A stretch of DNA of 57,560 nt from a virus (lineage: Duplodnaviria; Caudoviricetes), in the IMG/VR virus record IMGVR_UViG_3300027763_000005, positions 1-57,560 of that record; one strand, given 5' to 3'. The translations under genes and the position numbers were made by a program. Of this stretch, positions 210 to 57,529 are shown piece after piece. Each line of letters begins with the position of its first letter. The first letter of the stretch is position 1. The notes beneath the pieces are model-generated. The model had not been told where the DNA came from. It did no database searches and saw only the letters and a program-made list of their open reading frames with translations.

Positions 210-947
210 ATGGAATACCGCAAGACTCTTACCCGCGACCACGTTTCGTCGATTCTTCGGCATGATGAGGAGACGGGCAAGTTTTACTGGCTTATCAGTC
301 CCTCCAGAAATGTTAGGGCTGGTAGTGAAGCTGGGGCGGTTAAGGCAACGCGCAAGGCTAAGGAAGGCGTTTCAGCATCTTATCGGTATATCCGATATAA
401 TGGTTGGACAATCCCGGCTACGCAGATTGCTTGGCTTCTTTCTTACGGCGAATGGCCGATTGGTCGTATCACGTGCAAGGACAACAATACGTTGAACCTT
501 CGCGTGGACAACCTAGAGATGCAGAATGTAGTTGAGGGTAAGTTTGATTACAGGGACCAAGAGGAGCGGAAAGCCTACTCGAAGGCCCACCGCAAACAAA
601 ACCCTCTGGTCTGGAAGAATTCTCACCTTCAGAATTCATATGGCATTTCGCTCGCTGATTATGGGGATATGCTTGTCGCGCAGGGTGGTAAATGTGCCAT
701 TTGCGACCGGCCAGAGACCCATATAAGGAATGGCACGGTTAAGGCTCTTGCTGTTGACCATGACCACAAGACGAATAAAGTCAGGGCTCTTCTTTGCTCT
801 GAGTGCAACACGGGTCTTGGCAAGTTCCAAGATGATCCAAAGGTTCTGTTATCGGCGGTTGAGTATCTTACAAAACATTCCGATAACGGCAGTTCTAGGT
901 GCTTGATCACGCAGACCGGCCTAGCGGACTCTGCACAGACGGCGTGA
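210..947 (+). CDS. Free-standing HNH / endonuclease VII-type homing endonuclease
   Basis: N-terminal HNH-like region (WLLSYGEWP...DNNTLNLRVDNL). C-terminal EndoVII signature QGGKCAIC...LAVDHDH...VRALLCSECNTGLG. ATG at 210 follows GAGGAG. Confidence 0.85.
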   Translation: MEYRKTLTRDHVSSILRHDEETGKFYWLISPSRNVRAGSEAGAVKATRKAKEGVSASYRYIRYNGWTIPATQIAWLLSYGEWPIGRITCKDNNTLNLRVDNLEMQNVVEGKFDYRDQEERKAYSKAHRKQNPLVWKNSHLQNSYGISLADYGDMLVAQGGKCAICDRPETHIRNGTVKALAVDHDHKTNKVRALLCSECNTGLGKFQDDPKVLLSAVEYLTKHSDNGSSRCLITQTGLADSAQTA

Positions 948-964
948 TCTTATCGTGCAGGAGG
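895..964 (+). promoter_or_regulatory. Putative multi-pseudoknot cis-regulatory RNA over the RBS of the 970 gene
   Basis: Helices CTAGG(895-899)/CCTAG(920-924), GATCACGC(905-912)/GCGTGATC(942-949) and CTGCAC(931-936)/GTGCAG(955-960), followed by GAGG and ATG at 970. Confidence 0.55.
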
Positions 965-969
965 CTCTT

Positions 970-1422
970 ATGAGCATTGTTACATTCACTGGGCCTATTA
1001 AGGCGGGTGATGTTCTGAATACGACCGGCACCACTGCTGGTACGATCAAGAACGTCGGCTTTGTCGTGATGGCACAAACGGTTCCGATTACTCAGGCTGG
1101 TACTGCTACGGCCCTTGCCACAAGCATTGTCATCCCTGCCAACAGCCACATCGTCAACATTCAGGTGCTTGTCACGACTGCGTGGGACGGCGCGGCTTCA
1201 ACATTCAGCCTTGGTACCTCTGCAACATCGACCGAGCTGGTTGTTGCTGGGGCCGGTGGCACCATTGGTCTTTCCGCGCTTGCCCCCGGAGCAAATGCTA
1301 CCCGCACGGCAAAATGGACAAATGTTGGCACGTCTGATGTGATCATCTACGCACTGTCAGCAAATACTGGCAATGGTGTCGGTGACTTGGTCGTTCGTTA
1401 CATCCAAGCTGAAAATGCTTAA
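970..1422 (+). CDS. Virion structural protein (probable capsid decoration/minor head protein)
   Basis: Thr/Ala/Gly-rich, beta-type composition, first structural gene after the capsid gene. AGGAGG RBS. Confidence 0.6.
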   Translation: MSIVTFTGPIKAGDVLNTTGTTAGTIKNVGFVVMAQTVPITQAGTATALATSIVIPANSHIVNIQVLVTTAWDGAASTFSLGTSATSTELVVAGAGGTIGLSALAPGANATRTAKWTNVGTSDVIIYALSANTGNGVGDLVVRYIQAENA

Positions 1423-1442
1423 TCAAGCCATAGGAGGCGAGC

Positions 1443-1724
1443 ATGAAGGGTCGTTCTAAGCGTAATTCTGGCGGCGTTGCTGTCAAAGACGAAGCCCCAT
1501 CGGATATCTATGCCGGTGCCGGTTCCCCCACTGCCAAGGCAGCCGTTGAGCGCAAGCGTGGCGGTAAGACTGTTGGCAAGGTTGCTGGCATGAAGGCTAT
1601 GGCAAACATGGGTCGCGCACCTCGTAAGTCGGGTGGCCGTACAGGTTCGAACATGAACCCACTGTCCTCGGCGGCGAGTGCCACTCCTGCTCCGGGTCGA
1701 AATGTCACGGGTAGCCTGAACTAA
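1443..1724 (+). CDS. Small basic protein with repeated xxGG motifs (putative internal head protein)
   Basis: RNSGG, RKRGG, RKSGG. RBS AGGAGG. Confidence 0.6.
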   Translation: MKGRSKRNSGGVAVKDEAPSDIYAGAGSPTAKAAVERKRGGKTVGKVAGMKAMANMGRAPRKSGGRTGSNMNPLSSAASATPAPGRNVTGSLN

Positions 1725-1728
1725 AGTC

Positions 1729-1753
1729 GGTGGGGGCTTCGGCCCCCATCTTC
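1729..1753 (+). terminator. GC hairpin with cUUCGg loop (terminator or processing stem)
   Basis: GGTGGGGGC-TTCG-GCCCCCATC just after a stop codon. The T tract is weak. Confidence 0.55.
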
Positions 1754-1769
1754 CTATCTGGAGGGGCAA

Positions 1770-2015
1770 ATGGCAAAAACTCCCGTTTGGCAACGGTCTG
1801 CCGGGAAGAGTGAATCCGGCGGGCTAAACGATAAGGGTAGAGCCTCTCTAAAGGCAGCGGGCCACGATATAAAGCGTCCGCAACCAGAAGGCGGCTCGCG
1901 CAAAGACAATTTTTGTAGTAGGATGACAGGACTCAAGCGTAAGCTGACAGGGTCTGCCAAGGCTGCTGATCCAGATAGCCGGGTGAATCTAGCCCTTAAA
2001 AAGTGGGACTGTTAA
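1770..2015 (+). CDS. Conserved small phage protein (DUF6321-like)
   Basis: WQR..GK..SGGLN.KGRAS...SRKDNFCSRM.G...DPDSRVNLALKKWDC pattern. RBS GGAGG. Confidence 0.65.
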   Translation: MAKTPVWQRSAGKSESGGLNDKGRASLKAAGHDIKRPQPEGGSRKDNFCSRMTGLKRKLTGSAKAADPDSRVNLALKKWDC

Positions 2016-2016
2016 A

Positions 2017-2178
2017 ATGGACAAGCCCTTTTGGGAAACCAAAGCACCTAAAGATGCCGAGAAAAAGCATTTGAGCCGCAAACAGACTCAATCGGCCAAG
2101 GCTATGGCAAGGGCTGCTGGGCGACCTTATCCCAATTTGGTTGACAACGCGGCTGCTGCCCGCGCGAAAGGGAAGTGA
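2017..2178 (+). CDS. Small basic hypothetical protein (53 aa, below the ORF-track cutoff)
   Basis: MDKPFWETKAPK...AAGRPYPNLVDNAAAARAKGK. It fills the gap between neighbouring genes exactly. Confidence 0.6.
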   Translation: MDKPFWETKAPKDAEKKHLSRKQTQSAKAMARAAGRPYPNLVDNAAAARAKGK

Positions 2179-2179
2179 A

Positions 2180-2500
2180 ATGCAATACACACCAATTACA
2201 AAAACGGGTACTGGTCGTAGTTCAATCTGCGTGGTTGATGACTTTCAAGCACCATTCAACATCGGCGTTGCGGTCTCGATCAGTTCGACGGCAACATTTA
2301 CTGTTGAATATTCGCTAGATGACCCAACTGCTTCGGGCTACTCAGCCGCCTCTGCCGCATGGTTCGTTGCTCCAAACTTTACTTCTGGGTCTGCGGCCAT
2401 TGCTGGGGCCATTACCATCCCCTGTCGAGCAATTTCGGTGAATGCGTCGGCTAATGCTGGCACGATCACAGCTAAGATTGTTCAATCTGGCCCCGCGTAA
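2180..2500 (+). CDS. Small beta-rich structural protein
   Basis: ATG 2180 sits 1 nt after the previous stop. ATFTVEYSLDDP motif and structural context. Confidence 0.55.
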   Translation: MQYTPITKTGTGRSSICVVDDFQAPFNIGVAVSISSTATFTVEYSLDDPTASGYSAASAAWFVAPNFTSGSAAIAGAITIPCRAISVNASANAGTITAKIVQSGPA

Positions 2501-2502
2501 AA

Positions 2503-3243
2503 ATGGCAAACGGTGAAACCTTTTACGTATACGAGCATTGGCGGCTAGACCGCGATGAATGCTTTTACGTGGGTAAGGGTAGGGCCGGTCGTGCGTATTC
2601 CATGAAAGGCCGGAACCGTCACCATAAGGCTATCGTTGCCAAATTGTCGCGTATTGGCTCGGCACTTGAGGTGAGGATGGTGGCAACTGGGCTGTCAGAG
2701 GCTGATGCGTTTGCGCTAGAGATTGAGCGTATCAGTTTTTGGCGGGAAGCTGGCGTTGACTTAGCAAACGTTACAGATGGCGGGGAGGGTGTTACCGGGT
2801 TGAGGATGTCTGATGCCTCTAAACAAAAAATGTCAGACAAAAAAATAGGCGTCAAGCGAGGCCCGCATTCAGCTGAACATAGGTTAAGAATAGGTTTAGC
2901 CCATCGTGGTAAAAAATTCTCGCCTGAGCACATTGAGAAGCTTTCAAAAGCCAGAAGGGCGAGGGTAACTTCTTCCGAAACAAAAGAAAAAATGTCGCAA
3001 TCAATGACAAAGTTTTATAAAGAAAATCCTGAAGCGCGTCAGGCTGTTTCTGTTGCGCGCAAGGGTATGCGGCATTCAGAAGCTACTAAAAAATTAATGT
3101 CCGAAAAATCAAAAAATAAAATAATATCAAAAGAACAGCGTGCAAAAATCTCTCAAACCCTGACAGGAAAAAAACAATCTAAAGAAACCATTGAAAAAAG
3201 AGTTGCCTCTATAGCCAAAAGAAGATTGGAGTCGGCAAAATGA
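2503..3243 (+). CDS. GIY-YIG homing endonuclease with NUMOD3 repeats
   Basis: FYVYEH...FYVGKG...R, N.TDGGEG, and repeated HSxE(H/T)xxK(I/M)S units. Confidence 0.85.
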   Translation: MANGETFYVYEHWRLDRDECFYVGKGRAGRAYSMKGRNRHHKAIVAKLSRIGSALEVRMVATGLSEADAFALEIERISFWREAGVDLANVTDGGEGVTGLRMSDASKQKMSDKKIGVKRGPHSAEHRLRIGLAHRGKKFSPEHIEKLSKARRARVTSSETKEKMSQSMTKFYKENPEARQAVSVARKGMRHSEATKKLMSEKSKNKIISKEQRAKISQTLTGKKQSKETIEKRVASIAKRRLESAK

Positions 3244-3932
3244 CAACGTCGGGAACTTATAATTTTTCGCCGTCATTGGGAGAAATCGTACTTTATTCCT
3301 ACAACCTCGTCGGCTTGAGAAACACTTCTCTGCTTCAAGAGCATATGGAGTCGGCGCGCATGGCGTCGAACATGCTGTGTGCTAGGTGGGCCAACATGGG
3401 TGTGAACCTCTGGAAAGTGGACCTTGTCACCACAACACTGGTTACTGGCACGGCGACCTACCTAGTGGACTCCAAGACTGTCATGATTTTGGATGCGTAT
3501 GTGTCAAATAACCAAAGTGGTGCCGACATCGACCGCATCATTATGCCAGTGTCACGCACAGAATATGCCTCATACCCAAACAAAAATCAGCAGGGGTTTC
3601 CAACGGTTTTCTGGTTTGACAGACTTCTGTCACCCACTATCACGCTTTGGCCGGTTCCGAATGTTGATAACGGACCCGCAACCCTCAGTTATTATCGCGT
3701 CACTCAGATGCAGGATTCTGAGTTAAACAACGGTACCACGGTCGATATTCCGTATTTGTGGATGGAAGCATTTGCCTTTGGGCTGGCTTCTCGCCTTGCC
3801 ATGATCTGGGCTCCAGATAAGGTTACTCTCCTGAAGCCACTGGCTGATGAATCGTACCAGATTGCTGCGGATCAGAACATTGAAACCGCGCAACAGTACA
3901 TTTCCCCGATGATTTCCGGTTACTTCAGGTAA
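3240..3932 (+). CDS. Head-tail adaptor / tail tubular protein A-like
   Basis: MTTSGTYNF...WANMGVNLW...SRTEYASYPNK..QGFPT.FWFDR...LWPVP. Gene position fits. Confidence 0.65.
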   Translation: MTTSGTYNFSPSLGEIVLYSYNLVGLRNTSLLQEHMESARMASNMLCARWANMGVNLWKVDLVTTTLVTGTATYLVDSKTVMILDAYVSNNQSGADIDRIIMPVSRTEYASYPNKNQQGFPTVFWFDRLLSPTITLWPVPNVDNGPATLSYYRVTQMQDSELNNGTTVDIPYLWMEAFAFGLASRLAMIWAPDKVTLLKPLADESYQIAADQNIETAQQYISPMISGYFR

Positions 3933-3941
3933 GGAATTGTC

Positions 3942-4673
3942 ATGGGGTACGCATCCCGTTCGGGCCGAGCCAAAACAGACCCTAAGAACCCGCGCGCTCA
4001 CGCCATATGTGATCGTTGCGCTTTTCGTTACAATCATTCGGACCTCAGTTTCCAATACGACTGGGCCGGTGCGTCTCTGATCAACAAGAAGATGTTGGTC
4101 TGTCAAACTTGTTATGATGAGCCTCAGCAGCAACTTCGTGCCATTGTCGTTCCTGCCGATCCGATGCCGGTGATGAACCCGCGTGTCGAGCCGTATGCGT
4201 GGGATGAGACTGACCGCAGACAAGTTTCTGGCGCGGATATTGTCAGTCCGACAACAGGCATCCCGGTTCCCCGTGGTGATACCCGTGTCACAACTGCTGG
4301 AAGTTCTGCCACAAGCAACAATCGTGTTACCCAGCAGACCGGTGAAGCTCCCGGTGGCAAAAACCAGCTTCCGGGCACCGACCCCAATGCTGTCAGTTAT
4401 CGGGTCATCACCAACGTCTTCAATACCGGCGGCGTGATCTATCTGACCGTGGTAAACACCAATGGGTTCATCACAAACCAAAATGTCATCGTGGGTGGCG
4501 TTTTGGGTGTCACTGCGGCCAACGGCTCATGGGTCATCACGGTTGTGGACCTGACCACAATCTCCCTGAACGGTTCAGTGTTCTCCGGTGCATACACTTC
4601 CGGTGGCTATCTCATCAATGACCCCAGTGTGCCGTATGGGTTCACTGAGATTCCTAAGACTGGAACCCTTTGA
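3942..4673 (+). CDS. Putative virion protein with N-terminal Zn-binding CxxC...CxxC and C-terminal beta domain
   Basis: AICDRCAFRY...LVCQTCYDEPQQQL. C-terminal GV.GVTAANGSWVITVVD. Confidence 0.55.
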   Translation: MGYASRSGRAKTDPKNPRAHAICDRCAFRYNHSDLSFQYDWAGASLINKKMLVCQTCYDEPQQQLRAIVVPADPMPVMNPRVEPYAWDETDRRQVSGADIVSPTTGIPVPRGDTRVTTAGSSATSNNRVTQQTGEAPGGKNQLPGTDPNAVSYRVITNVFNTGGVIYLTVVNTNGFITNQNVIVGGVLGVTAANGSWVITVVDLTTISLNGSVFSGAYTSGGYLINDPSVPYGFTEIPKTGTL

Positions 4674-4737
4674 TAAATGGGGTGAAAGTTTCAGAAATTA
4701 GGGTATAGTACGTTCAAACCGTTGACGAGGTAGAACC

Positions 4738-6975
4738 GTGGCTTCAGTGCAAATCCCGAACCTCCCCGTTGCTACTTCCCTCACCGGAACAGAGCAGCTT
4801 GAGGCCGTCCAGTCTGGAACCTCTGTCCGCGTCACCTCCCAGCAAATTGCGAATCTAGCTCCTGCCGCGCCAACAGGCCCAACCGGCCCCATCGGTGCAA
4901 CAGGCCCAACCGGCCCCATCGGCGTTACCGGCCCCACGGGCGCTCAGGGCGCTCAAGGAAACGTTGGACCTACCGGCCCCAATGGCCCGACTGGCCCCAC
5001 GGGCATTATTGGACCCACTGGCTCTACAGGACCGCAGGGTGCTCAGGGTGTTGCCGGTGCAAATGGCACAAACGGCCCAACAGGTCCGACCGGCTCTGCT
5101 TCATTTACTCCGGGACCGACTGGTCCGACCGGCTCCCAAGGTGGGACCATTGTATATAAGGGGTCTGTTGCTACCGTTGGAGCACTTCCCCCAACAGGAA
5201 ACACGGTTAATGACGCCTACCTAGTTCTGTCAGACAGCCATCTGTACGTTTGGAATGGCACGGCGTGGATTGATAGTGGTGCGTTTACTTCCATTACCGG
5301 TCCTACCGGCCCTGCGGGAACTACCGGTCCAACCGGAGCCGCCGGTCCAACTGGTGCCGCATCGACTGTTGCTGGTCCTACCGGTCCTGCTGGAACTACG
5401 GGTGCAACGGGTGCAGTTGGAGCAACTGGTCCAACAGGTGCGGCCTCAACTGTTGCGGGTCCTACTGGTCCAACGGGTGGAGGCGTTACAACTGTATCGG
5501 TTTCGCCAAATGCTGGCGTCTCCGGTACGGTCGCTAACCCCACAACGACACCCGCCATCAGCCTGACTCTCGGTGTGATTACGCCCACCAGTGTCAACGG
5601 CCTGACCCTAACAGCGGCTGCAACCGGATTTACTGTTGCCGGTGGCACGACTTCGAAGACATTGACCGTCAGCAACACGCTGACATTGGCGGGCACTGAT
5701 GCCTCGACGCTGAATATTGGCACGGGTGGAACGCTTGGGACTTTGGCATTTCAAAGCTCAGTAGCGGGATCGGCCCTTACCGGACCGTCGCTTAATTCTG
5801 GCATTGTCACTTCCTCTCTGACAACCGTTGGAACCATTGGCGCGGGTGTATGGAACGGCACTACCATCGGCATCGCATACGGTGGCACAGGACAATCAAC
5901 CGCCCTCACCCAATACGGCGTTATCTATGGTTCGTCTACGACGGCTATGGGCAATACCGCAGCCGGAACTACGGGTCAGGTTCTCATCGCGACAACGAGC
6001 GCCGCGCCCTCTTGGGGTCAGGTTCCGATTGCCGGTGGCGGCACCGGGCAGACAACCACGGCACTTGGAACCATAGTTGTCGGCGCGAGTGGCAGCACGA
6101 CCACAAACCTCGCCATTGGCACAACTGGACAAGCTTTAACCGTTAGCGGCGGTACTGCCGCATGGGGTCTGGTTCCGATTGCCGGTGGCGGCACCGGCCT
6201 CTCCTCTACGCCCGCAAACGGCGCGCTGGACATTGGCAACGGCACAGGGTTTACCCGCACAACGCTGACGGCGGGCAGTGGCATTACGATTACCAATGGT
6301 GCGGGGTCTATTTCTATTGCGGCAAGCGGCGGCGGGGGTGGTACAGTCAATTCCGGCACATCAGGCCAACTCACCTACTACGCGGCGACCGGCACTGCGG
6401 TGTCGGGCAACCCCAATGCCACGATCAGCACCGCAGCACTGACCCTTGGTGTGCAAAACTCAGTGGCGGGCTCCCTTGTACTTGCCAATCTGGCTGCGGC
6501 GGGACGCTCCACGACCATTCAGTCCAGCGCGTCTGCTTCGGCGGCTTGGACCATGACCTTGCCAGTTTCGGCGGGGACGAGCACCTACGTCCTTTCCACG
6601 GACGGGGCTGGCGTCACAAGCTGGGCTGCTCATGTAACGTCACTGGTTGCGGGCAACGGCATAACTGTTTCCGGGGCGACGGGCGCGGTGACTGTCAGCC
6701 AAGATTTTTACACAGGCACCACGCAAAACAACACAAGTTACCCGATTGGGTCTTATATAGCCGTTATTAACACTAATGTTAGCCGACTGGTTAACGCAAG
6801 CCAGACGATTTGGTCGCCCCCAACTACTGGGGGAGGCGGGTCTTTTGCTGATAGCTCTACAGGCTCTGGTTCTGCAACCTTGACTGGAACTTGGAGAAGT
6901 CGCGGCGCGACCGCCACAGCTAGAACAGTAGGCTGCGACACTTACACTCAATATCTGTTTCAGCGCACAGCGTGA
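4738..6975 (+). CDS. Tail fibre with collagen-like (G-P-T)n repeats
   Basis: Long GPTGPT triplet runs, repeated VPIAGGGTG fibre motifs, C-terminal YPIG...GTWRSRG tip. Confidence 0.85.
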
Positions 6976-6983
6976 GGGGAAAA

Positions 6984-7250
6984 ATGGATAATGTAAAAAA
7001 TCTCACGGTCATTTGTCGGTGGCAGGATGGTGCATATAATTGCACCATTGATCTATTTGATGATTGGACCAAAACTTGGGAAAATGCAGTTCCCTATACG
7101 GCGCGCAGCGGTGACCCTGCGCCCGTAAACATCTGGATAATTGATCAGATCAATACGGGTGCATATGACCCAATTGATGCCTGCCCTATCCCTCCAACCC
7201 CTATTCCTCCCTCTGAAGTGCTGGGTGGCAATGGGCCAACGGTGGCCTGA
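6984..7250 (+). CDS. Putative tail fibre assembly protein
   Basis: Directly follows the fibre gene. VPYTARSGDP...GAYDPI motif. Confidence 0.5.
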   Translation: MDNVKNLTVICRWQDGAYNCTIDLFDDWTKTWENAVPYTARSGDPAPVNIWIIDQINTGAYDPIDACPIPPTPIPPSEVLGGNGPTVA

Positions 7251-7525
7251 TGCTCCAGACAAAGCCCCTCACCTACGGGAGCCTAAACGGTGCAATCTAT
7301 GACGCACCGGAGGTGGGCGATATTCTCCCCATGCACGATCATGGCGAGGACGATGTCCACATCACAATCGTGGCGCGTGGCTCTTTCAGGGTACACGGCA
7401 ACGGGTGGGAGATGGTTGGCAGGGCTGGGGACGTTATCGACTGGAGGTCCGGCCAAGCGCATGAATTTATTGCGTTGGAGCCGAATAGCCGGTTTGTGAA
7501 CATCGTGAAGGGTGCGCCGGTCTGA
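7250..7525 (+). CDS. Cupin-fold protein
   Basis: LPMHDH...HITIVARG...AHEFIALE cupin histidine motifs. Confidence 0.7.
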   Translation: MLQTKPLTYGSLNGAIYDAPEVGDILPMHDHGEDDVHITIVARGSFRVHGNGWEMVGRAGDVIDWRSGQAHEFIALEPNSRFVNIVKGAPV

Positions 7526-7596
7526 CGCTTGCGTGTCGCGGCGATGCGGGTAGAAATAAACCGCCCAATGGTTGGGCCTTTGAAAAGGGGAAGAGC

Positions 7597-7776
7597 ATGG
7601 AGCTGAATTTCAAATTCTTGGTGGAAGAGGTCAACGCCATCCTTCAGGCTTTGGGTGGACGCCCATATGCAGAAGTTCAGGTTCTAATTGAACGAATCAA
7701 GGCAGAGGGTGACGCTCAGATTGCGGCCAAAACCCCGGCTGTCATTGAAGAAACACCGGCCCCAGACGCCGAATAG
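7597..7776 (+). CDS. Small hypothetical protein (59 aa)
   Basis: MELNFKFLVEEVNAILQALGGRPYAEV... Purine-rich RBS. Not in the ORF track. Confidence 0.65.
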   Translation: MELNFKFLVEEVNAILQALGGRPYAEVQVLIERIKAEGDAQIAAKTPAVIEETPAPDAE

Positions 7777-7822
7777 CTATTTGTCACACCGACAAGTCTG
7801 ACTTAACTTTGGGGGGTTAAGA

Positions 7823-8905: not shown

Positions 8906-8906
8906 T

Positions 8907-10728: not shown

Positions 10729-10763
10729 ATGTGTTATAGGTCACAAAGACTGGAGTTACCGAT

Positions 10764-11981: not shown

Positions 11982-11984
11982 CAC

Positions 11985-44059: not shown

Positions 44060-44060
44060 A

Positions 44061-45963: not shown

Positions 45964-45988
45964 CAGGTGTGTGGTATCATTTTAAGAT

Positions 45989-46064: not shown

Positions 46065-46079
46065 TTTTAGAGGTTTGGC

Positions 46080-46292: not shown

Positions 46293-46295
46293 TCT

Positions 46296-50044: not shown

Positions 50045-50050
50045 GCTGCC

Positions 50051-51592
50051 ATGACAAATCAGCGGGTAATCAAGAACGCCTTGCAGATTGCCAGACGGCA
50101 TTATTCGACGGACGGCTCTGTGCCTTACCCAAAGTTTACTTCGCGCACCATTGCTGAAAACTGGACTCCGCCAGAAGATGTAGACCCGCGTTTGGGCAAG
50201 TTTATGGAAGAATACCCAGCCAAAATGGCAGAGGGTATTGCGGGCATCCCCCAAGCAATCTGGGACACGGTCAAATACCCCGGCCAGCTTCTGTATGGTG
50301 AGAAGCAATTTGATACTGATGAGGCGGTCAAGAAGGCGGTTGACATCACAGGTGCCGCCATGACGGGCAGCTTTCCATTCGCTCGTGCTGCGGCTGGTGA
50401 AGCGGTTCTTGGGTCTGGGCCGATTCGTGCTAATGCACCAGCAACATCTATTGAACATGAAGGTTCTGGAATTTTTCGTGTGCGTCATGGGGGTGAGCCA
50501 GCCGGAACAATTAGCGTGGCTAAAAATGGTTCTGGAAATTTTGTTTCCGCAGCTAACCTTGATGAGCCTTTTATTGGCAGGGGCATTGGCAGTGAAGCAT
50601 ATAATTTAATTGAAAATGAAATTGGTAGAAAACTTGCACCAAGTCCTCTTGGCATCTCTCCAACAGCAACAAAATTTTGGCAAAAACGATTAAAGGAGAT
50701 GTCGCCAGAAGACAGATCAAATTTGTTTGCACAAACACGAGAAGCGGGGGCATCTTACAATTTGCCAGAACGAGATGTTAATATGCGCCTTTATGGAATA
50801 GGCGGTCCTGAAAGTCTTCCTCCCGTTAAAACAAACAACCCTCGCATTGATATGGATTTCCGTGATGTGACTAAACGGGTTCCTGAGCTTCAAGAGGCCG
50901 CGCCAAAAGTTGCGTCGGGAGAGATGTCATCCGCCCAATATCAAGAGTTGGTTAATAAATACAAACCCGTCAGTGAGTGGGCGTCCGTTCCCAAACCGGC
51001 TTCATATGAAGAAATGTCCAATGCCTTGCGTTCTGATCAGGTTGCGAATATTGGCAAGGGCGGTTCTATCCCAGAGGGCCATCCTGTCGGTTTAAGATTG
51101 GACATCCCAGCATATCGCGATTATGGTGTCTGGGTGCCTACAATTCACGACAAAATCAAATCCGGGTCTCAGCCTGTTATGACGCATGAGCCAACTGCAT
51201 TAATCTCCAATGCGGTTTTTTCTATTCCTGAAAACAAAGCGTTAAACGTGGCTAAGGGTGGGCCAAAAAGTCCATTTGCAACCATCAATGGTCAATGGGT
51301 CCCCTTCAGTCAAGAAAGCGCAACCGCATTAGCCCAGCAAGCCCTGAAGGATAAAAACTGGCGTCAGGTTGGTATGGACCCAGAACGTCACAGCCATTTC
51401 TATGACAGAGCCACACAACAACCTATAATCGGAGCAGAGCAAGTTCTTCAAGTCGGCCCGCTGGTCTTGGCAAAAAACCCTCAGTATGGGTCAAAAAAAG
51501 ACTTTAAGTACAAATCAGGTGGTCCTGTTGTCGAACGAGCACTTGTGTTATTGTCAAAAAAGGTCGCAAGCCGCCGGGGACGCCCGGATTAA
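50051..51592 (+). CDS. Multi-domain putative virion cargo protein (GNAT-like domain + unknown conserved domain)
   Basis: LDEPFIGRGIGSEAY...SPTATKFW. VGLRLDIPAY...QVGMDPERHSHFYDR. Terminal GG/helix tags. Confidence 0.55.
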   Translation: MTNQRVIKNALQIARRHYSTDGSVPYPKFTSRTIAENWTPPEDVDPRLGKFMEEYPAKMAEGIAGIPQAIWDTVKYPGQLLYGEKQFDTDEAVKKAVDITGAAMTGSFPFARAAAGEAVLGSGPIRANAPATSIEHEGSGIFRVRHGGEPAGTISVAKNGSGNFVSAANLDEPFIGRGIGSEAYNLIENEIGRKLAPSPLGISPTATKFWQKRLKEMSPEDRSNLFAQTREAGASYNLPERDVNMRLYGIGGPESLPPVKTNNPRIDMDFRDVTKRVPELQEAAPKVASGEMSSAQYQELVNKYKPVSEWASVPKPASYEEMSNALRSDQVANIGKGGSIPEGHPVGLRLDIPAYRDYGVWVPTIHDKIKSGSQPVMTHEPTALISNAVFSIPENKALNVAKGGPKSPFATINGQWVPFSQESATALAQQALKDKNWRQVGMDPERHSHFYDRATQQPIIGAEQVLQVGPLVLAKNPQYGSKKDFKYKSGGPVVERALVLLSKKVASRRGRPD

Positions 51593-51607
51593 CTCCTAGG
51601 AGCAAGC

Positions 51608-52975
51608 ATGTCTGAGATGGCAAAACAGGCCCGAGCGGCCATGAAATCAAAAGCTAAGAGCCTCGCGGCTGGCGGTTCGGAAAAGGTTGACTCGTCTGAC
51701 TGGTCTCCCTCTGACCCGATTCATGCAGAAGCTAAAACCGGTATGCGTCCTATTAGCCGCCGCGCTTTCAAAAAGGGCGGCAAGGTTATGGGTGCCAAGG
51801 CTGCGGTGAATATGGGTCGTAAACCCCGCAAGTCCGGTGGTTCTGCCCTGTCAGCCAACAGCCTGATCAATCGCAATGCCAAAGACGCAAACGAAGAGCG
51901 TGAAGGCATCAAGCACATCGGCGGCATGAAAAAGGGTGGCCGCATCAAGAAACAAGGTGCTGGTGCCGTAACCGGTGACGCCATCAATGATCTTCTGGCT
52001 GCAAACCCCGGCCCGTCCGATGCCCCGGTGGATACCACACCGCGTTCGGCTCCCAATGCCCCGGAAAATCAGAAAATCACTCCTGAGATGCTGGCTAAGA
52101 TGAAGGCTGCTGCGGCGGCGCAAGCTGCGGCTTCGCGTCGTAAGGACGGTGGCCGTACCAAGCACGAAGACGAGGCAATGGACACGGCTCTCATTAAGAA
52201 GATGGTTAAGCCGTCTGCGCGCACTAAGAAAGAAGACGGCGGTGGCCTTTCGGGAGCGTTGGGTGGTCTGTTGACTTCTGAAATCCTCAAGGGTAACAGC
52301 CCGCTTTCGACCAAGGGCATGATTGATATGCTCTCCCCTAAGAAGTCCGGTGGCCGTGCCAAAAAGGCTGGCGGTGGATTTCTAAAGGATGCAGCTTCCG
52401 AATTGGCTAAGGATGAAACCAAAACATTCATGAAGTCCAAACTTGATGATGTTATGGGTAATTCTGGCGCAAGCGGCATGACAAACTTTAAGAAGGGTGG
52501 CCGTACCAAGAAACAGACCGGTGGCGGCGTCTTCACTGGCCCCGGATACCCCGGTAAGGTCCCCGGCGTTGTTTCCGGTGGGCGCACTGCTCACGCGGCT
52601 GGCGGTAAAGCGAAGCGTCACGGCAAGACAAATGTCAATATTGTCATTGCTGCTGGCAAACCGGCTGGTATGGATGGCATGGCAAATCCAATGGGTGGGC
52701 CGACTTCTCCCCCAGAAGGGATGCCAATTGCGGTTCAGGCTGGCCCCGGTGGTCTTCCTGCGGGCGGGATGCCTCCTGCTGGGCTGCCTCCGATGCCTCC
52801 GGGTCTCCCGACTGGTGCTCCGGGTGGGCTTCCTCCGATGCCACGTAAGTCTGGTGGCCGCGCGGCTCGCAAGGCTGGTGGCGGTGTTTATAAATCCTAC
52901 AAGGACATGGATGCTGGCGCGGGTTCTGGTTTAGGTCGGTTAGAGAAGACCGAAATCCAGAGGCGAGCAAAGTAA
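51608..52975 (+). CDS. Basic low-complexity protein with about 13 xxGG motifs (putative internal head protein)
   Basis: FKKGG, RKSGG, MKKGG, RKDGG and others. C-terminal MDAGAGSGLGRLEK. Confidence 0.6.
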   Translation: MSEMAKQARAAMKSKAKSLAAGGSEKVDSSDWSPSDPIHAEAKTGMRPISRRAFKKGGKVMGAKAAVNMGRKPRKSGGSALSANSLINRNAKDANEEREGIKHIGGMKKGGRIKKQGAGAVTGDAINDLLAANPGPSDAPVDTTPRSAPNAPENQKITPEMLAKMKAAAAAQAAASRRKDGGRTKHEDEAMDTALIKKMVKPSARTKKEDGGGLSGALGGLLTSEILKGNSPLSTKGMIDMLSPKKSGGRAKKAGGGFLKDAASELAKDETKTFMKSKLDDVMGNSGASGMTNFKKGGRTKKQTGGGVFTGPGYPGKVPGVVSGGRTAHAAGGKAKRHGKTNVNIVIAAGKPAGMDGMANPMGGPTSPPEGMPIAVQAGPGGLPAGGMPPAGLPPMPPGLPTGAPGGLPPMPRKSGGRAARKAGGGVYKSYKDMDAGAGSGLGRLEKTEIQRRAK

Positions 52976-53699: not shown

Positions 53700-54632
53700 A
53701 TGTCAGATAATGAAGAAATCATTGAAATTGACCTCAATGTTGAGCCGGTTTTAGACAAACACGGTAACCCTGAGCCGGTTATTGAGGTTGTTGAAGACCC
53801 ATCCACGTTAGACCCGCCGTCAAACAGCCGGGATAACCCCAAGGATGTTGATAAGGCTCTGAAAAAGCTGAACAAAAAGCTTGAGGAAGAGCGCGCAGCC
53901 CGCATTGAGGCCGAAAACAACGCCCGTGTTATGGCAGCACGGGCCAATCAGGCCGCAAACGAGGTTTCAGATACAAATCTGCACCTTGTTAACGGCGCGA
54001 TTGATAGTCTCAAGCGAGATCAGGACATTCTGAAGGCACATCTTCGGGATGCCATGACAATCGGGGACTATGACAGGGCGGCTGAACTTCAAGAGGGTAT
54101 GGCTTCTAACTTCACCAAGCTCAACAGCCTTGAGCGCGGCTTGCATGAGATGAAAAATGCTCCGCGACAGCCGGTTGGCCCCGTTTCCGTGCCAAAAGCC
54201 GACGTTTCGGTGGACTCCCTCATTGAACGGGTTACCCCTAAGTCCGCAGAATGGCTGGATCGGAACCGTGACTCCCTTCCTGATGCCAGATCAATTCGTG
54301 TTATGGCACGGGCTCATGAAGATGCTGTTGACTATGGCATTGCGCCAGAATCAGAAGCTTACTTCCAGTTTGTTGAGAACCGTCTGGGGATCAATAACAA
54401 TAATCGTCGCAGCATCCCGGAAGTGGATAATGTCATGTCTGGGGCATCAAACTCCACCCAAAAGCGGTCTTCTGCTCCGGCGTCGGCTCCTGTGTCACGG
54501 ACTCCCGTTGGAAGCAATTTCCGTCCGGGGGTGGTCCAACTGACTGCTTCTGAGGTCGAAGCTGCCAAAATCAGCGGTATTTCCCCACAGGAGTACTACC
54601 GTAACAAGATGCGCGAACAGAACCGCAGTTAA
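53700..54632 (+). CDS. Capsid scaffolding protein
   Basis: Acidic N-terminus, coiled coil, C-terminal LT..EV.AA...G.S..EY. Confidence 0.65.
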   Translation: MSDNEEIIEIDLNVEPVLDKHGNPEPVIEVVEDPSTLDPPSNSRDNPKDVDKALKKLNKKLEEERAARIEAENNARVMAARANQAANEVSDTNLHLVNGAIDSLKRDQDILKAHLRDAMTIGDYDRAAELQEGMASNFTKLNSLERGLHEMKNAPRQPVGPVSVPKADVSVDSLIERVTPKSAEWLDRNRDSLPDARSIRVMARAHEDAVDYGIAPESEAYFQFVENRLGINNNNRRSIPEVDNVMSGASNSTQKRSSAPASAPVSRTPVGSNFRPGVVQLTASEVEAAKISGISPQEYYRNKMREQNRS

Positions 54633-54646: not shown

Positions 54647-55288
54647 ATGTCTGAAGCAATGAAAGCCGCCCCCAAGCGTCGTGGCCGTCCGCCCCGCCCA
54701 ATTGTCAAAAAGGCTGAACCAAAGATGGAAGCAGCCGGTGATTTTGACAATGTTGTCATGACAGAAGTTGTCATTGAGGACTCGGTCGCCTTTGAACGTC
54801 CGCCCATGCGTCCGTCTATCCGGGATGAAGACCCGCGTCTGACAGCCGCCAAGCGCGCTGCTGAGATTCGTGGTCACCTTCTGGGTAGCATGGACGACGG
54901 CACGGATGAGTTTGCCGCCCCACGCCCGCCGGATGGCTGGACGTATGAGTGGAAGAGGAAGACCGTCCTTGGGCAGGAAGACCCTGCTTACCAAGTACAT
55001 TTGGCACGGATGGGTTGGGAACCAGTTCCCACTCGCCGTCACCCAGAAATGATGCCGGGACAGGGTAGCCACCCAGCAATTGAGCGTAAGGGTATGACCC
55101 TGATGATGCGCCCGACTGTGATCTCTGAAGAAGCCCGTGACATTGAAAAGCGCCGTGCGCGCGATCAGGTCCGTGCCAAAGAAGCACAATTGAATGCCAC
55201 CCCGGATGGTACGTTGACCCGTGACGATCCGCGTGTTCGCCCGAACATCAAGAAGGGGTTTTCCCCAATTGAAGTCCCAACAGACTGA
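54647..55288 (+). CDS. Conserved head-region hypothetical protein
   Basis: P.PPDGWTYEWKR..VLG......GWEPV......GM.LM. Confidence 0.65.
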   Translation: MSEAMKAAPKRRGRPPRPIVKKAEPKMEAAGDFDNVVMTEVVIEDSVAFERPPMRPSIRDEDPRLTAAKRAAEIRGHLLGSMDDGTDEFAAPRPPDGWTYEWKRKTVLGQEDPAYQVHLARMGWEPVPTRRHPEMMPGQGSHPAIERKGMTLMMRPTVISEEARDIEKRRARDQVRAKEAQLNATPDGTLTRDDPRVRPNIKKGFSPIEVPTD

Positions 55289-55306: not shown

Positions 55307-55341
55307 GAGGAGGGGGTCGCCATGTGCGGCCCTTTTCTTTT
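55307..55341 (+). terminator. Intrinsic terminator
   Basis: GAGGAGGGGGTCGC-CATGT-GCGGCCCTTTTCTTTT. Confidence 0.65.
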
Positions 55342-55361
55342 ATGGGGAAGTGTGTATTATA

Positions 55362-55438
55362 AAAAAATGAACCCGGCAGAGTTTGTCGCTCTGCCGGGCT
55401 CACTGAACCTTCCGCCGCAAACGGAGAGGAGCAGCTTA
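55362..55438 (-). ncRNA. Predicted small antisense RNA (~75 nt)
   Basis: Minus-strand promoter TTGACT(55472-55467)-N16-TATAAT(55450-55445). 10-bp GC hairpin (55372-55398) followed on the minus strand by a T7 run. Confidence 0.55.
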
Positions 55439-55850
55439 GGGACGATTATATATCTCATCCCCCAGCAGTCAATCTCACCAGAACGTCGGAGAACAAATAA
55501 CCTCACCCGGCAATGCCGATTGAGTGAGTTTTTGTTGGTTCGGCGGTGAGCCTTCGGGGATGGTCCGTTATCCGTTGCCCGCGACTGCTGGTGGTCTACA
55601 TCACCAGATAAGTTTCCTGCGGGTTTTTGCCCTCCGACCGTCCTGACGCCGGGTAGGCTAAGGAGCAACACCGATCTACATACCCCCTAGAGTAGTGCCC
55701 TAAAGGTACTAGGGAGCGTTCTGGCCCAACGACAGGTGAGAATATCACCAAGGCATCGGTGCTATACGGGAAACAAGAGCCCTCCCCCGACCGTGACCCC
55801 CGTAAGGGTCCTTCCCAAGCAAGGGAGGGAGGGTAGACGGAGGGCGGAGC
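55365..55850 (+). ncRNA. Candidate large structured ncRNA
   Basis: No credible ORF. At least 9 helices, including long-range 55462-70/55583-91, 55629-36/55838-45 and 55669-75/55755-61. Confidence 0.55.
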
Positions 55851-55908
55851 TTTACATTTATCTAGAAATGGTTTACTTTCCTAAAATAGAGTCCTTCTGG
55901 GGCTTTTA

Positions 55909-55999
55909 ATCGTCCCCCGGCGTGGACGATCAATCTTTTCCGGTTCTAAGTCGCCCCGGTGTGCGATGATGAACTTCCTGAAAAGGAGTTTCCATCATG
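55909..55999 (+). promoter_or_regulatory. 5' UTR hairpins of the capsid operon
   Basis: Two hairpins with CCCGGYGT loops, plus a GAAA-capped stem burying AGGAG and the ATG. Confidence 0.55.
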
Positions 56000-56602
56000 G
56001 CGAACACAAACGCCCCATATGGATTTCGTCAGTATGCTGGTACGGGCTCGTCCCCTACCTACGAACAGGTGGCTGTTGCCATTGCGTATGATGCTACGGC
56101 TCTCTTCTTTGGTGACCCCGTTGTCCCGACCACCTCTGGCACGGTTGCTAAGGGTGACATTGCGGGCGCTCCCACGGTTCAGATCGCTGGCATCTTTCAG
56201 GGATGCAAGTACCTCTCGGTGTCGCAGAAGCGCACTGTTTGGTCGAACTATTGGCCCGGTTCTGATGTCGCTTCCGGCAATGTTGTCGAGGGCTACATCA
56301 TCAATGACCCGAATGCCAAGTTTGTGGCTCAGATCGGTGGTTCTTCTTCAGTCGGCGCGGTTGCCGGTGATGTGAATGCCAACGTGCAGTTTGCTTATGG
56401 CACGGGTAACACCGCCAACGGCATCTCTGGTGCTTACGTTGACATCTCTGTCACCCCGACCACAACCAACACGCTTCCCTTCCGTATTGTCAGCCTTGTC
56501 ACGCAACCTCCCGGTGCCCCCGGTACGGAAGCTGGCGCTTACAACTACGTCGTGGTCGCGTTTAACAACGTCTCCACCAAACAACTTCTTTCGGTGGGCT
56601 AA
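55997..56602 (+). CDS. Capsid-associated (cement/decoration-type) protein
   Basis: MAN.NAP.GF......F.GDPV.....GIF.GC.Y.......DP...F..Q. Immediately upstream of the capsid gene. Confidence 0.7.
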   Translation: MANTNAPYGFRQYAGTGSSPTYEQVAVAIAYDATALFFGDPVVPTTSGTVAKGDIAGAPTVQIAGIFQGCKYLSVSQKRTVWSNYWPGSDVASGNVVEGYIINDPNAKFVAQIGGSSSVGAVAGDVNANVQFAYGTGNTANGISGAYVDISVTPTTTNTLPFRIVSLVTQPPGAPGTEAGAYNYVVVAFNNVSTKQLLSVG

Positions 56603-56617
56603 GAGGAGTCTTGAACT

Positions 56618-57529
56618 ATGGCTGTTAACCTTTCTGCCATTAAGGACCTTCTCCTCCCCGGCCTCCGTGGGGTTGAAGGCAAGTACGAGCAAATTCCGGC
56701 ACAGTATGACAAGATTTTCACGAAGCATGACTCGAAAATGGCGCTTGAGCGCACAGCCGAGATGCGTTTCTTGGGTCTTGCCCAACTGAAGACTGAAGGC
56801 GGTCAGACCGCTTTCGACAACAGTGCTGGCGAACGCTTCATCTATAACCAAGAGCACACTGAAATTGCTCTGGGTTACGCAATCACCCGCAAGGCGATTG
56901 ATGACAACCTCTACAAGACTCAGTTCGCTCCGTCGAACCTCGGCCTGATCGAATCTTTCGGCCAGACCAAGGAAATCTACGGTGCCAATATCCTCAACAC
57001 TGCGACGACGTACAACTCGTCCATCGGTGGTGACGGTAAGGCTCTTTGCGCGACTGACCATCCTATCGATGGTGGCACGGTCTCAAATCGTCCGGCGACA
57101 GATGTTGATCTCAATGAGTCAACACTACTCAACGCTATGATTTCGATTCGTACCAACTTCAAGGATCAGGCTGGCCTCAAGGTGTTTGCGCGCGGTCGCA
57201 AGCTCGTTGTCCCGCCGCAGCTTGAACCGGTTGCCATTCGTCTGACAAAGACTGAACTGCGTCCGGGCACTGCCGATAACGATGTCAACGCGATCATGTC
57301 CACTGCTGGCGGTCTGCCAGAAGGATATCTGGTCAATGACTTCCTGACATCGGCTCGTGCTTGGTTCCTCCTGACAAACATTGATGGTTTGTCGTACATG
57401 GAGCGGGTTAAGTTTGAAAGCGATATGCAAGTCGACTTCGTAACCGATAACCTTTTAGTTAAAGGATACGAGCGCTACTCGTTCGGCTATTATAACTTCC
57501 GTTCTATCTTCGGGTCGTTCCCAACCTGA
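56618..57529 (+). CDS. Major capsid protein (Mu gpT-like, HK97 fold)
   Basis: LLPGL, K.EG...FD, ALGYAITR.AIDDNLY, GDG.AL....HP, L.VPPQL, T.DND.NA, ERYSFG. Confidence 0.9.
   Translation: MAVNLSAIKDLLLPGLRGVEGKYEQIPAQYDKIFTKHDSKMALERTAEMRFLGLAQLKTEGGQTAFDNSAGERFIYNQEHTEIALGYAITRKAIDDNLYKTQFAPSNLGLIESFGQTKEIYGANILNTATTYNSSIGGDGKALCATDHPIDGGTVSNRPATDVDLNESTLLNAMISIRTNFKDQAGLKVFARGRKLVVPPQLEPVAIRLTKTELRPGTADNDVNAIMSTAGGLPEGYLVNDFLTSARAWFLLTNIDGLSYMERVKFESDMQVDFVTDNLLVKGYERYSFGYYNFRSIFGSFPT

Follow-up and report, generated by a model that had tools for sequence, protein, structure and literature searches.

A dispersed octamer with dialects in the complete genome of an uncultured lake phage, possibly the mimic of a host Chi-like signal

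Background

What reads an eight-letter word that a phage repeats about once per kilobase, on both strands and mostly inside its genes? The question is raised by the virus record IMGVR_UViG_3300027763_000005, a 57,560-base stretch of DNA (hereafter the window, i.e., the whole stretch that was analysed) in which the octamer TGGCACGG is present in 55 exact copies (33 on the plus strand and 22 on the minus strand). In IMG/VR, the window is a complete virus record bearing terminal repeats (57.6 kb, 100% complete according to CheckV), and it represents the complete genome of an uncultured lake phage. Our results indicate that the octamer is a DNA signal of the form Y-TGGC-NN-GG, selected for its density and independent of orientation. 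By analogy with phages rich in Chi, the recombination signal of their hosts, we tentatively favour the view that this word may mimic a host Chi-like signal for the nucleases RecBCD/AddAB, a reading that we hold to be quite possible and a little short of probable. Enrichment, coding independence, saturation, turnover, dialects and mosaicism were observed here, and from them we infer a host nuclease as the reader.

Abundance and distribution of the octamer

Exact matching located TGGCACGG at all 55 positions reported by the initial annotation and nowhere else. Dinucleotide-preserving shuffles (n = 100) yielded a mean of 2.83 copies (standard deviation 1.65, maximum 7), in agreement with the 2-3 copies first expected for random DNA, and none of the 100 shuffles reached 55; an order-3 Markov model expects 4.3 copies (z 23). 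Indeed, TGGCACGG is the rank-1 octamer of the genome, followed by the overlapping words TTGGCACG (38 copies) and GGCACGGG (25 copies), and its density of one per 1.05 kb over both strands supports the earlier description of a dispersed word with about one site per kb. The initial observation is therefore confirmed, and it is stronger than its author thought.

The sites are listed below from their exact-match coordinates, with the reading context taken from an 85-gene list made for this analysis (92% coding), which also served for the coding controls; ORF stands for open reading frame, and L012, G001, G002, G003 and G004 are relatives treated further on.

731..738, plus: sense Gly-Thr (xxT-GGC-ACG-G), ORF 195-947 (HNH/EndoVII)
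3446..3453, plus: sense Gly-Thr, ORF 3240-3932
5256..5263, plus: sense Gly-Thr, tail fibre ORF 4738-6975
5718..5725, plus: sense Gly-Thr, tail fibre ORF 4738-6975
8228..8235, minus: antisense Pro-Cys-His, ORF 7823-8905
8473..8480, minus: antisense Arg-Ala, ORF 7823-8905
10000..10007, plus: sense Gly-Thr, ORF 9608-10135
10335..10342, minus: antisense Arg-Ala, endolysin ORF 10132-10728
12872..12879, plus: sense Gly-Thr, ORF 11985-14060
14149..14156, plus: sense Gly-Thr, ORF 14060-14416
14280..14287, minus: antisense Val-Pro, ORF 14060-14416
14563..14570, plus: sense Gly-Thr, ORF 14420-14986
16088..16095, plus: sense Gly-Thr, ORF 15498-20063
16747..16754, minus: antisense Val-Pro, ORF 15498-20063
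16814..16821, plus: sense Gly-Thr, ORF 15498-20063
18590..18597, plus: sense Gly-Thr, ORF 15498-20063
20680..20687, plus: sense Gly-Thr, ORF 20063-22465
21895..21902, plus: sense Gly-Thr, ORF 20063-22465
22360..22367, minus: antisense Arg-Ala, ORF 20063-22465
26660..26667, plus: antisense Val-Pro, DnaA-domain-IV-like ORF 26342-26707(-)
27058..27065, plus: antisense Arg-Ala, GcrA-like ORF 26714-27241(-)
27301..27308, minus: sense Gly-Thr, ORF 27248-27769(-)
29778..29785, plus: antisense Arg-Ala, Erf ORF 29758-30387(-)
30195..30202, plus: antisense Arg-Ala, Erf ORF 29758-30387(-)
30944..30951, minus: sense Met-Ala-Arg, ORF 30752-30994(-)
31558..31565, plus: sense Met-Ala-Arg, ORF 31470-31691
33078..33085, minus: outside the gene list, upstream of the initiator-like ORF 33156-33611
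33656..33663, minus: outside the gene list, between the initiator-like ORF and the helicase
33786..33793, plus: sense Gly-Thr, helicase ORF 33733-35202
34622..34629, plus: sense Leu-Ala-Arg, helicase; homologous codons TGGCGCGG in G001 and G003, TGGCGAGG in G002
35218..35225, plus: sense Met-Ala-Arg, primase ORF 35199-36089
36827..36834, minus: sense Leu-Ala-Arg, ORF 36689-36964(-)
37541..37548, plus: intergenic
37780..37787, minus: sense Leu-Ala-Arg, ORF 37594-37974(-)
38253..38260, minus: sense Leu-Ala-Arg, DUF7192 ORF 37983-38843(-)
39892..39899, minus: sense Gly-Thr, AAA+ ORF 38849-40078(-)
40278..40285, plus: sense Gly-Thr, small terminase ORF 40237-40920; intact in L012
41211..41218, plus: sense Gly-Thr, ORF 41134-41418; intact in L012
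41426..41433, minus: intergenic; intact in L012
42094..42101, minus: intergenic; intact in L012
42482..42489, plus: antisense Val-Pro, ORF 42254-42772(-); intact in L012
42704..42711, minus: sense Met-Ala-Arg, ORF 42254-42772(-); 1 mismatch in L012
42911..42918, minus: sense Leu-Ala-Arg, ORF 42800-43015(-); intact in L012
43785..43792, minus: sense Gly-Thr, ORF 43660-44016(-); 1 mismatch in L012
43884..43891, plus: antisense Arg-Ala, ORF 43660-44016(-); intact in L012
45701..45708, plus: sense Leu-Ala-Arg, large terminase; homologous codons TGGCGCGG in G001
48798..48805, plus: sense Leu-Ala-Arg, ORF 48620-50044
52354..52361, minus: antisense Arg-Ala, ORF 51608-52975
54187..54194, minus: antisense Val-Pro, ORF 53682-54632
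54304..54311, plus: sense Met-Ala-Arg, ORF 53682-54632; TGGCGCGG in G001, TGGCAAGG in G002
55002..55009, plus: sense Leu-Ala-Arg, ORF 54647-55288
55171..55178, minus: antisense Arg-Ala, ORF 54647-55288
56137..56144, plus: sense Gly-Thr, ORF 55997-56602
56398..56405, plus: sense Gly-Thr, ORF 55997-56602
57073..57080, plus: sense Gly-Thr, major capsid ORF 56618-57529; identical in G001 and G004

The letters preceding the word are also constrained, with T at -3 in 35 of the 55 sites, A or T at -2 in 44, T at -1 in 35 and a pyrimidine (T or C) at -1 in 40, as the A/T run noticed initially had announced; in less constrained DNA, this flank extends to TTTTTTGGCACGG. Two single-letter variants of the octamer are enriched as well, spanning positions 1113..52922:

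TGGCGCGG: 21 copies against 4.2 expected, first at 4229 and last at 52915, with the same T-rich 5′ flank as TGGCACGG
TGGCAAGG: 19 copies against 5.6 expected, first at 1113 and last at 51052, with a weaker flank

Gaps between TGGCACGG sites range from 67 to 4300 bases, and close inverted pairs are absent from the window. Sites are densest near the small-terminase region (14 sites in 36-44 kb vs 7.6 expected, P 0.025), and a hand count on either side of a putative origin at 37.2 kb revealed no replication-arm skew (16+/12- vs 17+/10-). Replication-origin iterons were rejected as the identity of the sites, given that TGGCACGG is dispersed without a tandem cluster beside the initiator and primase genes and that other repeats, at 33554-33618 and 37166-37331, fit that role.

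Selection at the DNA level

Almost all copies (50/55) are intragenic, 35 in the sense and 15 in the antisense orientation, and 5 fall outside the gene list. Sense copies are read as Gly-Thr (22) or Leu/Met-Ala-Arg (13) and antisense copies as Arg-Ala (9), Val-Pro (5) or Pro-Cys-His (1), which matches all the contexts described initially, and no site of the window occupies the Trp-His-Gly frame. Against the 50 intragenic copies observed, synonymous-codon shuffles within genes (n = 200) produced 5.68 +/- 2.25 copies (maximum 12) and codon-order shuffles (n = 200) 2.69 +/- 1.60 copies (maximum 8), so that the enrichment persists under codon-preserving shuffles as it does under the Markov model, the two controls that had been advised. 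Without any change of protein, TGGCACGG could be written at 158 places (99 sense, 59 antisense), 50 of which (35 and 15) are occupied; the 70% sense bias is thus a bias of opportunity, and the word itself is orientation-neutral. As an example, GGC-ACG is used to write 26 of the 69 Gly-Thr-[GAVDE] tripeptides of the window. The octamer is a DNA-level signal, selected or driven at the DNA rather than the protein level, and the earlier claim to this effect survives both shuffles.

Dialects, turnover and mosaic genomes

Relatives were collected in IMG/VR through the large terminase (80 loci) and through the helicase and primase. Their own dialects follow the form Y-TGGC-NN-GG, with densities of 1-2.5 per kb, namely TGGCGCGG, TGGCGAGG, TGGCGGGG, TGGCGCGT and TGGT[TA][CG]GG:

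L012 (terminase 98% identical to the window): TGGCACGG, 7 in 5.6 kb
G415 (30 kb): NN of TGGC-NN-GG is AC 19, AA 13, GC 10
G001 (41.5 kb): TGGCGCGG 37, TGGCGGGG 18
G003 (37.5 kb): TGGCGCGG 37, TGGCGAGG 21, TGGCACGG 0
G002 (35 kb): TGGCGGGG 19, TGGCGCGG 0
G416 (56 kb): NN of TGGC-NN-GG is GC 35, GA 29, GG 18, AC 13, AA 13
L281 (21 kb): TGGCGCGT 21
G418: TGGT[TA][CG]GG 44
L033 and L003: TGGCTGGG

In every dialect, position -1 is T or C and G is kept at word position 7, and G is also kept at position 8 in all except TGGCGCGT. Among phages with the same helicase-primase module, the density of the word family extends from 2.5 to 0.14 per kb, and no such enriched word is seen in relatives such as G004 and G005, whose terminases are 50-70% identical. 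The dialect already differs at 83-86% large-terminase identity, where TGGCTGGG or TGGCGCGG replaces TGGCACGG. These switches can be followed codon by codon: at 34622, TTGGCACGG of the window becomes TTGGCGCGG in G001, CTGGCGCGG in G003 and CTGGCGAGG in G002, all synonymous, and the Leu/Met-Ala-Arg sites at 45701 and 54304 also change dialect synonymously at homologous codons.

Individual positions are not conserved over long distances. In seven genomes at ~70% nucleotide identity, 55-83% of the aligned window sites carry no motif in the relative (e.g., 4/6 and 10/12), the losses being 7/11 in G415, 14/18 in G417 and 6/11 in G001. L012, a near relative at 85-93% identity, preserves 7 of the 9 aligned sites intact, intergenic ones included, with 2 mismatches in 72 site bases vs 7.6 expected. 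Since positions are lost in the distant relatives and densities are kept, the density is maintained while the sites turn over, which answers a question that the initial annotation had put to related phages.

Single genomes can be mosaics of dialects. The complete relative G417 (IMGVR_UViG_3300027917_000004) holds 13 copies of TGGCACGG, 12 of them in the capsid-to-tail module closest to the window (51-59.5 kb plus 1-7.6 kb), and the rest of this genome uses TGGCGCGG. Another word, GGTGGCGG, forms for the most part one-strand clusters of a few kb in G001 and G004, and in the window it stands mostly in the GGT-GGC-GG (Gly-Gly) frame.

Our literature search, made in listings and in the two papers on Chi cited below, found neither TGGCACGG nor phages described as having a dispersed word with dialects. 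Under any reading, three observations are new, namely the dialects, their synonymous exchange at homologous codons and the mosaic genomes. The saturation, with about a third of the synonymous opportunities used, and the dialect switching at homologous codons offer a clean natural experiment on writing DNA signals over coding sequence.

Local sets of TGGCACGG were also noticed elsewhere. Two IMG/VR fragments of large unrelated phages, G420 (920-4568) and G421 (2465-9650), carry 7 and 8 copies, all on one strand, in stretches of 4-7 kb; their spacing partly agrees, and no copy is seen in the rest of ~21 kb. These oriented sets are perhaps real promoters. The metagenome contig Ga0123354_10067429 (L505; 30% GC) has 21 same-strand copies in 4 kb with irregular spacing and is an unrelated repeat family.

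Gene content and palindrome avoidance

A Pfam scan of 87 ORFs placed the following genes among others:

40237-40920: Sf6-type small terminase
44242-45963: large terminase
56618-57529: capsid protein

The genome also encodes a SU10-type portal, tail and ejection proteins, recombination genes (Erf, YqaJ-type exonuclease, SSB-like protein and RusA), replication genes (O/DnaD-like initiator, SF2 helicase and Toprim primase) and small GcrA-like and DnaA-domain-IV-like proteins. No DNA polymerase, methyltransferase, Vsr-like, integrase or sigma54-activator domain was matched among the 87 ORFs, about half of which belong to no family. Megablast gave no match of the window to cultured phages, and the best large-terminase match among them has 45% identity. 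Three freshwater metagenome runs contain half or more of the sampled words of the window, one of them being possibly its source; the 24 metagenome runs containing the phage consist of contigs, not reads.

Six-base palindromes are strongly avoided, with 23 of the 64 present at no more than one copy where at least 4 are expected (observed/expected: CCATGG 0/17, CCCGGG 0/21, CGGCCG 0/22, GCCGGC 1/26, GGCGCC 1/20, TGGCCA 0/17, TCCGGA 0/17 and CGATCG 1/11), CCWGG has 0 copies and RGATCY 2. The avoided sets partly differ in relatives (13 palindromes in G001, 10 in G003, 13 in G002, 7 in G004 and 17 in G005). By its composition, the window DNA thus appears unmodified, exposed to restriction breaks and under heavy type II restriction pressure.

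Additional genes were noted in the window:

195-947: HNH_3 and Endonuclease VII fusion, adjoining the capsid gene
2503-3243: NUMOD3 homing-endonuclease-like gene
27894-28247: small HNH gene, 70-77% conserved across the motif-bearing clade
43485-46064: four tRNA genes (Gln-UUG, Leu-UAA, Pro-UGG and Thr-UGU) flanking the large terminase

A host Chi-like signal as the favoured reading

If the word mimics a host Chi-like signal, its role might be pictured as follows. The phage probably packages by headful, as its Sf6-type small terminase suggests, in which case the linear DNA ends would fall anywhere on the map. The host nuclease would enter at those ends or at restriction breaks, to which DNA left unmodified, as the near-absent palindromes suggest, would be open. 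A recognition word every 1-2 kb per strand would then switch the nuclease from degradation to RecA loading, sparing the genome and sustaining both circularisation and recombination-dependent replication. Dialects would reflect the recognition specificities of different hosts, and recombined modules would keep the dialect of their former genome.

This reading is supported by the density, which is kept when positions are not, by the apparent exposure of unmodified DNA to restriction breaks, at which such nucleases enter, and by the finding that no tested phage protein tracks the dialect (see below), leaving an external reader open. Of the options listed initially, the self-mark or anti-defence signal comes closest to it. 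Known Chi words were rejected as the signal of the window, their excess being modest and not dispersed (GCTGGCGG, 10 vs 2.7 expected, all on the plus strand within plus-strand genes; GCTGGTGG, 8 vs 2.5 expected).

Several points weigh on the other side. The phage possesses its own Rec module (Erf, YqaJ-type exonuclease and SSB-like protein), dialects change between phages with 83-86% identical large terminases, and several variants are enriched within one genome, as in G416. Alphaproteobacterial hosts use AddAB, whose known signals have 5-7 letters, and the context effect of the Escherichia coli Chi lies on its 3′ side, when the extra conserved letters are here 5′ of the core. Lastly, no bacterial genome enriched for the word was met among the 406 searched, and the hunt for a host gave none. 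Note that no RecBCD inhibitor was recognised in the window, though many of its ORFs belong to no known family.

The search behind these 406 genomes covered 401 Alphaproteobacteria drawn evenly from the class and 5 metagenome-assembled genomes (MAGs) holding contigs of relatives. The GcrA-like gene belongs to a family that we take to point to Alphaproteobacteria, and together with the MAG bins it hints at alphaproteobacterial hosts; the bins with relatives' contigs were a beta proteobacterium, Rhodospirillaceae, Caulobacteraceae, Rhodospirillales, Afipia, Paceibacterota and Verrucomicrobia, phage-contig binning being weak evidence, and the only host hint given by the endolysin in a protein atlas was 'Pseudomonadota'. 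Among the 401 genomes, TGGCACGG reached at most 0.18 per kb and at most 3.9 times the control; in sampled DNA of four genomes among the highest in density or ratio (G106, G393, G280 and G194), the word ranked 367th or lower, and two unpublished genomes (G254 and G054) were unremarkable. In the 5 MAGs, TGGCRCGG stayed at the level of the reversed control, and their phage contigs also had no motif. Motif-rich DNA was further sought with scans for pairs of the word (gaps of 0-30 and 200-230 in IMG/VR and of 400-430 in metagenomes, 80 loci each), which gave among the matches listed only tandem coding repeats or local one-strand clusters; with ~0.4 hits expected per true genome, these scans say little.

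If the host Chi-like reading is true, these phages would reveal the recombination-nuclease words of uncultured lake bacteria without culture, and would show that such words vary among hosts whose phages are closely related. A new clue, obtained from sequence only, would moreover be found in the dialect, both for matching phages to hosts and for tracing the host background of mosaic modules.

Alternative readers

A reader encoded by the phage itself, with a drifting specificity that would generate the dialects, is the chief competing explanation, though it appears rather unlikely. Such a protein would bind TTTTGGCACGG, as against TTTTGGCGCGG, and might conceivably nick DNA site-specifically, create recombination hotspots, serve packaging, or coat or self-mark the DNA; site-specific nicks in phage DNA are known from T5 and tf. 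In an extended form that we find equally doubtful, a fast-evolving reader would recognise Y-TGGC-NN-GG as a self-encoded 'genome word' every 0.5-1 kb on both strands, serving as a self-mark for packaging, for nuclease protection or as recombination hotspots. Word and reader would then co-evolve into dialects and recombinants would be dialect mosaics, a virus-owned analogue of the logic of uptake sequences or Chi. If the reader were phage-encoded, a virus with unmodified DNA would here be marking its genome by a means not yet described.

The pace of the dialects argues for such a reader, as the change to TGGCTGGG or TGGCGCGG at 83-86% terminase identity is faster than expected for a host Chi, and so do the graded, overlapping variant sets within single genomes, the range of enrichment (2.5 to 0.14 per kb) under a shared helicase-primase module and the lack of an enriched host among the 406 genomes. 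The early module of the motif-bearing clade (HNH at 72-77%, SSB-like, GcrA-like, initiator, helicase and primase) is also absent from the motif-free G004 and G005, and five genes (28244-28510, 31693-32001, 37594-37974, 37983-38843 and 38849-40078) were found only in the two TGGCACGG genomes of this comparison, the window and G415. However, these five are absent from equally motif-rich genomes of other dialects. The minus-strand module at 37594-40078, which only G415 among seven relatives has, comprises a 126-aa ORF, a DUF7192 protein and a MoxR/CobS-like AAA+ ATPase.

Co-variation with the dialect was examined by comparing the identity to the window of proteins from G415, which shares its dialect, and from G001, which uses another:

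Small terminase: G415 46%, G001 42% (L077 50%)
HNH: G415 76%, G001 76%
GcrA-like: G415 26%, G001 30%
Initiator: G415 35%, G001 47%
Primase: G415 59%, G001 55%
Erf: G415 61%, G001 55%
Exonuclease: G415 63%, G001 64%

All seven proteins were rejected as the reader, the window being no closer to G415 than to G001, and few residues in them are unique to the window and G415. The helicase is the exception, with 15 such residues in 470 columns; L326 and L325, which also use TGGCACGG, have only 3 of the 15, so this signal reflects kinship rather than specificity and the helicase was discarded too. Two of the helix-turn-helix (HTH) proteins proposed initially as readers fail likewise: the GcrA-like protein at 26714 does not track the dialect, and for the DnaA-domain-IV protein at 26342, no homologue exists in G001-G005, the motif-rich G001 and G003 included, though its neighbours are present there. 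The initiator-like HTH_36 protein at 33156 was rejected for not tracking the dialect. When the gene contents of 8 motif-rich and 10 motif-poor sequences were compared, only an HTH protein and two ORFs of no known function stood out, and it was the poor set that they were enriched in. A literature search at the level of listings brought up no comparable case of a dispersed word read by a phage protein; about half of the ORFs belong to no family, and a phage reader may lie among them.

It is improbable that the word spreads by molecular drive rather than by a benefit to the phage, through a biased step favouring the DNA that carries it, such as the start of packaging by the small terminase, uptake into competent hosts or mismatch repair acting with a bias on near-cognates. 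The uptake sequences (DUS/USS) of Neisseria and Haemophilus occur about once per kb in both orientations and in permissive frames, with a GC core, an AT-rich flank and dialects, and the word resembles them in its density and orientations, its permissive frames (none in Trp-His-Gly), its enriched one-off variants (21 TGGCGCGG and 19 TGGCAAGG), its GC-rich core beside a T-tract, its dialects and its turnover of positions. In addition, no conserved packaging protein diverges more than the small terminase (30-46% identity, vs 70-82% for the large terminase), and site density peaks near it. Yet its similarity to the window (46% for G415, 42% for G001 and 50% for L077) does not follow the dialect, a reason for which pac or small-terminase binding sites were also rejected. 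Drive is further disfavoured by the densities of the 406 genomes, none of which approaches ~1 per kb, by the lack of close inverted pairs (smallest gap 67 bases) and by the lack of a DNA methyltransferase or Vsr-like gene among the 87 ORFs; with no integrase found in the phage, there is also no obvious route for drive through transformation.

A sponge or block for host RpoN, made of sigma54 sites reduced to their -24 element, is hardly credible: all 55 sites contain the 7-letter -24 consensus TGGCACG as quoted initially, with T or C at -1 in 40, but 50 of them are inside genes on both strands (15 antisense), TTGC is found at the canonical -12 spacing +/-1 in 0/55, and GC at that spacing (GG-N10-GC) in 5/55, i.e., background (~4 expected from a GC dinucleotide frequency of 7.3%). 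The missing -12 box was thus rightly noted at the outset, and base counts are flat at +11 to +14. The RpoN box and its DNA target are near-universal, and the -24 consensus does not extend to the G at word positions 7 and 8; the dialects TGGCGCGG, TGGCGAGG, TGGCGGGG, TGGCGCGT and TGGT[TA][CG]GG nevertheless alter consensus positions and retain G at position 7 (and at 8 in all but TGGCGCGT). With no Sigma54_activat-type Pfam match among the 87 ORFs in addition, the sigma54 interpretation offered initially does not hold, and genuine sigma54 promoters were rejected on the same grounds (no -12 element, intragenic sites on both strands and a consensus not kept in relatives).

Other repeats of the window and its relatives

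Repeats distinct from the octamer were noted in three regions of the window:

33552-33618: three 20-base, partly palindromic TGTAGCAGATTGCTACAC-like repeats between the initiator-like and helicase genes, which look like operator or origin sites
37166-37331, minus: ~11 GGTCGGTGG(T) units with a period of 7-14, 1.1 kb beyond the primase gene, possibly the replication origin
41100-41800: dense repeats between the small terminase and the tRNA genes, including five GGTGTGACAAACC-like copies and the palindrome TTGTCATGACAA

The primase/helicase loci of relatives hold lineage-specific arrays (GGTCGGTC, TGGTTGGT and TCGGTTCA), and the repeats at 41100-41800 occupy the place where relatives have parS-like palindromes. 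The 16-base perfect palindrome TGTTTCACGTGAAACA, which we take to be the canonical chromosomal parS site bound by ParB, occurs in 2-5 copies within ~1.5 kb in 21 loci (L001, L003, L014, L015, L017, L032-L035, L240, L281 and L292-L294 among its carriers), with the large terminase downstream where checked. At least one copy is present in 27 of 587 loci, some being overlapping pieces of one contig; the window has 0 perfect copies and one two-mismatch copy at 28125.

Comparison with known systems

With sigma54 promoters, the word shares its first seven letters, equal to the -24 consensus, and it differs from them by sites without a -12 element (TTGC 0/55), intragenic and variable in relatives. The HIP1 octamer of cyanobacteria, reportedly highly iterated with lineage variants and with a repair drive proposed (Elhai, 2015), is comparable in its very high density and variants; HIP1 is a palindrome tied to methyltransferases, whereas our word is asymmetric, no methyltransferase was found and CGATCG itself is depleted (1 vs 11).

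Uptake sequences match the statistics of the word equally well, i.e., about one per kb in both orientations, permissive intragenic frames, enriched one-off variants, a GC core with an AT-rich flank, and lineage dialects with a fixed core. To our knowledge, they are known only in the chromosomes of competent bacteria; an explanation of this kind would need a competent host with the same density, and none was seen in the 406 genomes or among the 80 metagenome loci listed. The present word belongs instead to a lytic-looking phage clade, with no enriched bacterial genome found and no inverted pairs.

Chi-rich phages differ from the window in several respects. Its word is not any known Chi; it has an Erf/exonuclease module, when those phages have no Rec modules; and dialects among close relatives were not described in the parts of the report on these phages that were available (Zheng et al., 2025, PMC12315714). 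In those same parts, host Chi is the commonest octamer of P1, LLS and MD8, followed by overlapping octamers (PMC12315714), as TGGCACGG is here, so that the initial statement that no phage system like this had been described has to be withdrawn. Densities of 0.5-1 per kb are of the same order as the one per 1.05 kb of the window: P1 has 50 Chi (1 per 1.9 kb), LLS 23 (1 per 1.86 kb, 20 in one orientation) and Pseudomonas phage MD8 32 copies of Chi GCTGGCGC (PMC12315714), a word that shares 7 contiguous letters with the extended word CTGGCGCGG of G003. According to the same excerpts, Chi clusters near the packaging end, with terminal clustering in LLS and MD8 (PMC12315714), and the peak of the window lies near its small terminase. 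In the cos phages LLS and MD8, Chi lies almost entirely on one strand, and abundant Chi accompanies the lack of any Rec module in lambdoid phages (PMC12315714); P1, a headful phage, uses both strands in the first 50 kb that we counted (15 plus and 12 minus), as the window does (33/22). The G-rich word family of the window, opening with YTGG, ending in GG and variable at letters 5-6, is also built in a way similar to Chi words. In the available parts of Buton & Bobay (PMC8022716), the variants GCTGGTGG, GCTGGCGG, GCTGCTGG and GCTGGAGG keep GCTG..GG and vary between, Chi is well conserved within Enterobacteriaceae, and most Proteobacteria must use words other than the known Chi. As far as these excerpts go, Chi is the only described cause found for one asymmetric octamer being the commonest word of a phage.

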